From Myxococcota bacterium (GTDB taxonomy: Bacteria; Myxococcota_A; UBA9160; UBA4427): a stretch of 64,000 nucleotides of DNA. Below, one piece after another: positions 58,542 through 58,625 of the stretch. The stretch is from contig JBNLVL010000004.1 in assembly GCA_050618075.1 (NCBI GenBank), forward strand, positions 461,587 through 525,586, written 5' to 3'. Below the pieces are notes generated by a model. The model was given only the letters and a program-made list of their open reading frames with translations. It was not told the DNA's origin and ran no database searches. Positions within the stretch are counted from its first letter, which is position 1, and each line of letters opens with the position of its first letter. A program made the position numbers and the translations under genes.

Positions 58542-58547
58542 ATTCTG
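58542..58547 (-). promoter_or_regulatory. putative -10 hexamer CAGAAT of the lectin operon promoter
   Basis: Minus-strand CAGAAT lies 21 nt downstream of CRP box 1 and 54 nt upstream of ATG 58488. No -35 is visible, as expected for an activator-dependent promoter. Confidence 0.35.
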
Positions 58548-58568
58548 GCCGGTCGGGAGGGAGCGCTA

Positions 58569-58584
58569 TGTGAACCGGTCCACA
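58569..58584. promoter_or_regulatory. CRP-type box 1 (TGTGA-ACCGGT-CCACA; one mismatch to TGTGA-N6-TCACA)
   Basis: Read directly from the sequence. Its centre would be at -41.5 relative to a start site inferred from the CAGAAT hexamer. Confidence 0.55.
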
Positions 58585-58609
58585 CAAGACGCACTTCGGC
58601 CCGGCTTTC

Positions 58610-58625
58610 TGTGAAGCGGTTCACA
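58610..58625. promoter_or_regulatory. CRP-type box 2 (TGTGA-AGCGGT-TCACA; perfect consensus half-sites)
   Basis: Read directly from the sequence. Its centre is 41 bp from box 1. It lies 39 nt downstream of the CRP-like gene stop. Confidence 0.6.

Follow-up and report, generated by a model that had tools for sequence, protein, structure and literature searches.

A conserved pair of CRP-type boxes between a crp gene and a lectin-like gene in a Myxococcota bacterium: a predicted tandem operator

Two CRP-type boxes in a crp-lectin spacer

We analyzed a 64-kb stretch of the metagenome-assembled genome of an uncultured Myxococcota bacterium (contig JBNLVL010000004.1), which we refer to as the window. 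It contains a single CRP-family gene, here called crp, with a receptor-type nucleotide cyclase gene encoded divergently from it and, on the same strand as crp, a downstream gene for a secreted lectin-like protein (Table 1). The two minus-strand genes crp and the lectin-like gene are separated by a gap of 175 bp, and two CRP-type boxes sit in this gap, the distal one beginning 38 bp after the end of crp.

Table 1. Genes and predicted regulatory features of the locus, in window coordinates.
Feature	Coordinates	Strand	Description
Metallophosphoesterase gene, 265 aa	55243..56040	minus	Pfam Metallophos_2; D..GD..GNHD..H..GHTH motifs
Small protein gene, 202 aa	56163..56771	minus	No Pfam family; co-directional with the target gene
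Target gene, secreted 548-aa protein	56842..58488	minus	N-terminal Pfam F5/8 type C (discoidin, F-lectin-like) domain; C-terminal part uncharacterized
Shine-Dalgarno-like GGGAGAC	58497..58503	minus	Ahead of ATG at 58488; purine-rich block kept in orthologues
Predicted transcription start	58535	minus	7 nt downstream of the hexamer; predicted from geometry alone
Candidate -10 hexamer CAGAAT	58542..58547	minus	Plus strand reads ATTCTG
Proximal CRP-type box	58569..58584	minus	TGTGAACCGGTCCACA on the plus strand, TGTGGACCGGTTCACA on the minus strand; one mismatch; predicted center -41.5
Distal CRP-type box	58610..58625	minus	TGTGAAGCGGTTCACA on the plus strand, TGTGAACCGCTTCACA on the minus strand; perfect TGTGA-N6-TCACA; predicted center -82.5
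Crp/Fnr-family regulator gene (crp), 221 aa	58664..59329	minus	Pfam cNMP_binding (1.7e-22) and HTH_Crp_2 (5.2e-12)
7TMR-DISM receptor-type class III nucleotide cyclase gene	59520..61787	plus	Pfam 7TMR-DISM_7TM and Guanylate_cyc; divergent from crp

The boxes had been proposed in a first-pass annotation of this DNA, which placed their centers 41 bp apart but made no mention of the adjacent regulator and cyclase genes, the most informative part of their surroundings. Both 16-mers are in place, and their centers, at 58576.5 and 58617.5, are indeed 41 bp, or approximately 3.9 helical turns, apart. Each box is a 16-bp palindrome with two pentamer half-sites and a 6-bp spacer, and the corresponding boxes of orthologous loci (see below) deviate from TGTGA-N6-TCACA at zero to two positions. 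A repeat finder independently recovered the pair at the 41-bp spacing, with a similarity that extends over 22 nt, as long as the footprint of a CRP site.

We searched the window for TGTGA-N6-TCACA with at most one mismatch and found exactly two matches, both of them these boxes, compared to an expectation of 0.54 from shuffled sequences. The first-pass annotation had called a perfect 16-mer of this kind unlikely by chance in such GC-rich DNA and had noted no comparable box in the other intergenic regions inspected by eye. When up to two mismatches were allowed, the window was not enriched in the motif (7 matches found, 9.9 expected).

It is extremely improbable that the two matches are a functionless coincidence. 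Single matches with at most one mismatch are expected by chance at approximately 0.5 per 64 kb, but the probability of two such matches no more than 200 bp apart anywhere in the window is approximately 9e-4 (a rough analytic estimate), and 468 kb of unrelated metagenomic control loci contained four single matches and no pairs. The control set included 78 non-orthologous loci obtained from a metagenome scan with the lectin-protein alignment, which captured generic discoidin-domain patterns. Chance is effectively refuted by the conservation of sequence, spacing, and register in four diverged loci, described in the next section.

Two loci outside the orthologous set, L029 (2656-2671) and L030 (1348-1363), carry a perfect box, TGTGACCCACATCACA, approximately 470 bp upstream of an unrelated discoidin-domain gene. 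These loci come from two near-identical JGI contigs, Ga0209514_10001908 and Ga0082335_1002049, and the proximity of a perfect box to a discoidin-domain gene is probably a coincidence.

Conservation of the boxes and the predicted promoter

We recovered orthologous loci from metagenomes by protein searches and exact-protein contig look-ups. A scan of a collection of species-representative genomes with the CRP protein found no orthologous locus; all matches were distant relatives that shared at most 36% identity. Relative to the window, the CRP proteins of the metagenomic loci are 84% (L010), 80% (L011 and L012), 74% (L013 and L014), and 72% (L015) identical. The gene order that recurs is cyclase, crp, lectin gene, and then the small protein and the metallophosphoesterase. 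For footprinting, we used the four distinct loci in which the lectin gene comes after crp (the window, L010, L011, and L015), whose CRP proteins are 72 to 100% identical and which represent one narrow clade.

The spacer alignment of these four loci contains two islands of conservation, which coincide with the boxes, while the flanks have diverged. Seventeen of the 20 half-site columns are invariant, compared to 22 of 150 columns in the rest of the spacer (Fisher p = 3.7e-10, four loci). The distal box matches the consensus perfectly in the window, L010, and L015 and has one mismatch in L011; the proximal box has one mismatch in the window and 2, 1, and 0 in L010, L011, and L015, respectively. 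The distance between the boxes is 41 bp in all four loci. We built a weight matrix from the eight boxes of these loci and applied it to the window, where the two boxes scored 29.9 and 27.8 bits and the next best site scored 7.4, approximately 20 bits lower.

The pattern of substitutions also bears on whether the palindromes function in RNA, be it as terminating or stabilizing hairpins of the crp transcript or as part of a structured leader of the lectin mRNA. A hairpin of 5 to 8 bp is possible at each box, and the spacer folds slightly better than shuffled sequences (z = -2.0). Against this, neither a U tract nor a predicted terminator is present, and the distal-box hairpin is followed by GAAAGCC, unlike an intrinsic terminator; nor is there a relevant Rfam match. 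Substitutions in the orthologues break pairs on one side without compensation, as in TGTGAGCCAGTCCACA and AGTGGACCGCTTCACA, while the TGTGA and TCACA letters are kept, and one-sided, uncompensated changes that retain these letters are the pattern of a protein operator. In addition, with a start at 58535 the boxes would fall outside the lectin mRNA, and the crp orthologue of L013 has no such hairpins. We therefore consider an RNA-level role highly improbable.

The box pair is confined to loci in which crp adjoins the lectin gene (four of four). In L013 and L014, a convergent gene replaces the lectin gene next to the crp orthologue, and no box occurs anywhere in the 4.4-kb contig of L013. In L094, which encodes a lectin orthologue with 53% identity, a glyoxalase gene takes the place of crp upstream, and there is no box. 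Two further loci, L096 and L097, encode distant CRP homologues (44 to 47% identity) in unrelated contexts without boxes.

This distribution helps to identify the protein that would bind the boxes. They could be real operators of a different CRP/FNR paralogue, perhaps a global one encoded elsewhere, with the adjacency of crp being incidental. Many bacteria have several CRP/FNR paralogues with overlapping motifs (PMC10187061; PMC5758884), the genome was examined here over 64 kb, and the crp orthologue of L013 and L014 has no local boxes, so its targets must lie elsewhere. However, the pair is found only where crp adjoins the lectin gene and is absent from L094, where crp is not a neighbor, and the protein encoded next to the boxes carries a matching recognition helix (see below). 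Because the box pair strictly co-occurs with crp-lectin adjacency, we favor the adjacent regulator as the binding protein and regard a paralogue encoded elsewhere as distinctly unlikely.

Two other loci deserve mention. At positions 61-76 of L095, a one-mismatch box, CGTGAGATCTTTCACA, lies approximately 140 bp upstream of the ATG of a lectin homologue with 41% identity at the end of the contig; this locus lacks both a partner box at 41 bp and a CAGRRT hexamer at the 21-nt distance. The second locus, L001 (5917-7798), comes from an unrelated Rhodospirillaceae metagenome-assembled genome (contig CAZZDK010000004.1) and has the same layout around a CRP homologue with 36% identity. A perfect box, TGTGACGCGCTTCACA, begins 8 bp after the crp stop codon and is followed by 21 nt and then by GACAAT; downstream are genes for a 379-aa protein without a Pfam family and for a PAS-GGDEF diguanylate cyclase. 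The layout in L001 suggests that a crp gene followed by its own putative class II target promoter is a recurring arrangement.

The geometry downstream of the boxes is equally constrained. In the window, 21 nt (58548-58568) separate the proximal box from the CAGAAT hexamer, and the proximal box is followed at exactly 21 nt by a CAG[A/G][A/G]T hexamer in all four loci. The hexamers of the orthologues read CAGAGT, CAGAGT, and CAGGGT, with the C, A, G, and final T invariant. Other distances drift among the four loci: the distal box lies 34 to 47 nt from the stop codon of crp, and 50 to 57 nt separate the hexamer from the ATG.

CAGAAT is a poor match to a -10 element, with C at -12. Positions 2 and 6 matter most in a -10 element, and the hexamers of all four loci carry an A and a T, respectively, at these positions. 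The CAGRRT pattern also resembles TAGRRT, which we take to be the -10 consensus of high-GC bacteria. A generic sigma-70 promoter scan of the locus called no full -35/-10 promoter, as would be the case if an activator site took the place of the -35 element. We also considered two other readings of the spacer. An antisense promoter directed from the boxes toward crp was rejected, as there is no -10-like hexamer on the plus strand 21 nt past the distal box and that stretch shows no conservation. We likewise set aside the idea that the conserved CCAG block belongs to a sigma-54 or ECF promoter, because inspection by eye found no matching -24/-12 or -35 partner.

Provided that transcription starts at 58535, the 21-nt distance between hexamer and proximal box would place the box centers at -41.5 and -82.5, and the arithmetic of the first-pass annotation is correct in this respect. 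Its proposal of a class II register agrees with the 21-nt gap and its conservation. Its description of the geometry as a classic tandem is too strong, since natural E. coli pairs cluster near -41.5/-93.5 (PMC5957442): the usual layout there has sites at -41 and at -91 to -93.5, approximately 50 to 53 bp apart, rather than the 41 bp seen here. CRP sites in E. coli peak at -41.5, -61.5, and -93.5 (PMC5957442), and -82.5 is a measured activating position for E. coli CRP acting alone, with alpha approximately 19, versus approximately 1 at -76.5 (PMC6301791). If the start is placed correctly, the two boxes would lie on the same face of the DNA, with the 41-bp spacing kept in four loci and with both -41.5 and -82.5 on activating phases (PMC6301791).

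The boxes could also be functional in another geometry or direction, with a start elsewhere (for example, one that puts them at class I positions), with repression or dampening of expression, or with a role in blocking read-through from crp. No terminator was called between crp and the boxes, so read-through is conceivable. CRP bound upstream raises or lowers promoter activity according to its position, and the lowering at some positions extends to FNR (PMC3445967); class II regulation by CRP in E. coli can flip between activation and repression upon small changes (PMC6301791). On the other hand, conservation downstream of the boxes is limited to the CAGRRT hexamer, whose fixed distance of 21 nt is exactly that of the class II register, no conserved alternative -10 element is visible, and both box centers fall on activating helical phases (PMC6301791). 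We consider a different geometry or direction unlikely, and we infer activation from a start near 58535 rather than repression.

A perfect 8-bp inverted repeat (58552-58559 and 58498-58505) is only weakly conserved in the orthologues. In minus-strand RNA, CUCCCGAC could pair with GUCGGGAG, which holds the Shine-Dalgarno sequence of the lectin gene. The upstream arm precedes the predicted CRP-dependent start; therefore, the occluding arm would be present only in transcripts that read through from crp.

Every computational test agrees with the earlier proposal of a CRP-type tandem operator in class II register. Most likely, the two boxes are a real CRP-type tandem operator, belonging to an ordinary kind of bacterial promoter.

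The regulator, the cyclase, and the target genes

The nearest solved relatives of the regulator are GlxR, M. tuberculosis CRP, T. thermophilus CRP, and Clr (E approximately 1e-26 to 1e-28), and E. coli CAP is more distant (E = 1e-16). Its recognition helix, SRESINK, is of the R-E-x-x-N-K type, as is the aligned SRETVNK in GlxR and M. tuberculosis CRP. GlxR and M. tuberculosis CRP bind TGTGA-N6-TCACA, and the Arg and Glu of the helix contact G:C pairs of this motif (PMC10187061). The helix SVSRESINK is kept among the orthologues except for one Lys-to-Arg change. The gene adjoining the boxes thus encodes a predicted cognate regulator, with the Arg-Glu...Arg/Lys residues for contacting G and C of TGTGA in its recognition helix.

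The cyclic-nucleotide-binding domain contains the phosphate-ribose signature E(X)nRS as GELG...PRSAS, and E84, R93, and S94 are invariant in five orthologues. E(X)nRS or E(X)nRT is the signature of all characterized CRPs that bind cAMP or cGMP (PMC10187061). At the C-helix positions that contact the nucleobase, the regulator has Leu138-Ser139 (RRLSER). The pairs listed for characterized proteins are TS, TT, TN, LN, and AD, and Leu-Ser is not among them (PMC10187061). The ligand would be cAMP or cGMP.

The cyclase is syntenic with crp in every locus that includes upstream DNA. It keeps the metal-binding and transition-state residues, and the two positions that specify the substrate are Gln (FVNQYLGD) and Gly (RLSGGVIGD) in all four orthologues. 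Class III cyclases are distinguished at these positions by Lys plus Asp or Thr in adenylate cyclases and by Glu/Cys in guanylate cyclases. The non-canonical Gln/Gly pair at this locus corresponds to neither combination. Of the cyclases compared, Synechocystis Cya2 (2w01), which we take to be a guanylate cyclase, comes nearest with Glu/Gly, and CyaB from P. aeruginosa has Lys/Thr. Because of the Leu-Ser pair in the C-helix and the Gln/Gly pair in the cyclase, we regard cAMP as no more than a candidate ligand and use the term cyclic nucleotide throughout.

In the window, an in-frame TGA (60240-60242) splits the cyclase into two open reading frames, 59520-60242 and 60243-61787. The first encodes the periplasmic domain, and the second, which has a GTG start at the next codon, encodes the seven-transmembrane region plus the cyclase domain. 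The cyclases of L011, L013, and L015 are single proteins of 717 to 751 aa, with Trp, Trp, and Arg, respectively, at the position of the stop. The same TGA split is present in a Logan contig (L009, SRR30568139). The split could be a nonsense mutation that makes the gene a pseudogene, a two-polypeptide version of the protein, or an error common to assemblies of the same sample. The in-frame stop may impair the input arm of the circuit in this genome.

The divergent intergenic region between crp and the cyclase contains no CRP-type box. It has tandem repeats (59433-59518 and 59557-59596), including 9-, 18-, and 27-bp units (GGTTTCGCA...) and 3.3 copies of a 12-bp unit, GGGAAGAGAAGT, and its length ranges from approximately 40 to 340 bp among the orthologues.

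We used the structure prediction of the target protein for the assignment of the lectin-like domain alone. The predicted model, which is of moderate to low confidence (pLDDT 59), gave Foldseek matches to fucose-binding modules, CBM32, and discoidins. At the C terminus of the protein, a long helix rich in Lys is predicted (residues ~481-547). The small 202-aa protein that follows the lectin gene in the window also follows it in L010 and L015, and its gene possibly shares an operon with the lectin gene. A weak similarity (E = 8e-4) links the small protein to the confidently predicted, beta-rich domain in the middle of the lectin-like protein.

The metallophosphoesterase is syntenic in L010 and L015, where it is 73 to 74% identical. 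Its motifs are those listed for class III phosphodiesterases, a family in which the substrate is not predictable from sequence (PMC4222275). It is possible that this enzyme is a cyclic-nucleotide phosphodiesterase. A specific assignment as a cAMP phosphodiesterase was rejected; the best solved relative is 3qfm, and the protein is not detectably close to CpdA or Rv0805.

A predicted local circuit and its relation to known systems

We consider it likely that the boxes are operators of the adjacent CRP and that, with a weak -10 element, CAGAAT, they form an activator-dependent promoter of the lectin-like gene, possibly together with the two genes after it. Under this model, the divergently encoded 7TMR-DISM receptor cyclase would respond to an extracytoplasmic cue by making a cyclic nucleotide. 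A nucleotide-bound CRP dimer at the proximal box, near -41.5, would overlap the -35 region and recruit RNA polymerase in the manner of a class II activator. A second dimer near -82.5, four helical turns upstream and on the same face of the DNA, would add a class I-type contact. An alpha-CTD positioned near -62, approximately 20 bp from each box center, could touch both dimers. The alpha-CTD contacts CRP at a distance of 18 to 24 bp (PMC3445967). The segment between the boxes has few A/T bases, and in the alignment of the four loci these are concentrated at its midpoint.

A more ambitious reading is that the locus is a self-contained signaling cassette of a narrow clade of uncultured Myxococcota, in which a 7TMR-DISM receptor cyclase and a phosphoesterase accompany a CRP dedicated to the tandem-box promoter of the secreted lectin-like protein, with a messenger that, given the Gln/Gly and Leu-Ser pairs, is maybe not cAMP and with bridging by the alpha-CTD across 41 bp, an arrangement undescribed among natural CRP promoters. 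We regard this combination as doubtful.

Judged from its sequence and conservation, the promoter is real, well conserved, and mechanistically ordinary. MrpC, the only well-studied CRP-family factor in Myxococcota, is not controlled by a nucleotide (PMC10187061), and the locus described here provides a clean, comparatively supported case of CRP-type regulation in this phylum. The general understanding of CRP regulation is unchanged; the value of the locus lies in its annotation and in its use as a tractable test case. The circuit of sensor cyclase, regulator, and target is compact and could be rebuilt in a model host, where it could show which cue the 7TMR-DISM cyclase senses, which nucleotide it makes, and how a CRP tandem with 41-bp spacing works.

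In gene arrangement, the closest analogue is the cyaD1-clr-smc02178-spdA locus of S. meliloti (PMC4222275). In both loci, a receptor-like class III cyclase is found with a regulator of the CRP family, a neighboring target of unknown biochemical function whose promoter has a CRP-type box, and a metallophosphoesterase with class III phosphodiesterase motifs, and both appear to be local cyclic-nucleotide circuits rather than systems of global catabolite control. S. meliloti Clr recognizes TGTT-N8-AACA with an unusual F-helix and acts from a single box at -61.5, a class I position (PMC4222275), whereas the locus in the window has the helix RESINK and two canonical TGTGA-N6-TCACA boxes, the proximal one in predicted class II register. 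The two loci also differ in that the one described here has a 7TMR-DISM sensor and a secreted discoidin/F-lectin-like target and is found in Myxococcota; the likeness described here is one of gene content.

A second cyclase-linked system is gcyB-gcyC-cgrA of R. centenum, in which cyclase genes are linked to a cGMP-responsive CRP and a perfect TGTGA-N6-TCACA box is present in the locus (PMC10187061, PMC4681086). That box lies in the promoter of the cyclase-crp operon itself, an autoregulatory arrangement, and CgrA has RT rather than RS in its signature, whereas the boxes described here lie between crp and a separate target. Because the R. centenum system uses cGMP together with a perfect box, such a box alone does not imply cAMP.

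The recognition helix and the DNA motif are shared with GlxR of Corynebacterium and Rv3676 of M. tuberculosis. Those proteins are global regulators with hundreds of sites and have Thr-Asn in the C-helix, whereas the regulator in the window has Leu-Ser and belongs to a different phylum. The predicted promoter itself resembles class II and class III promoters of E. coli, such as galP1, deoP2, and cdd, which have the identical core motif, a proximal site 21 nt from a -10-like hexamer, and a second site on the same face (PMC10187061, PMC5957442, PMC3445967). The tandem promoters of E. coli place their sites at approximately -41 and -91 to -93.5, often with CytR between them, compared to the 41-bp spacing of the boxes described here. 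The activating regions through which CRP contacts RNA polymerase (AR1 to AR3) show no sequence conservation across distant CRPs. Unlike the global CRP of E. coli, the regulator encoded next to these boxes appears to be dedicated to its neighboring gene.
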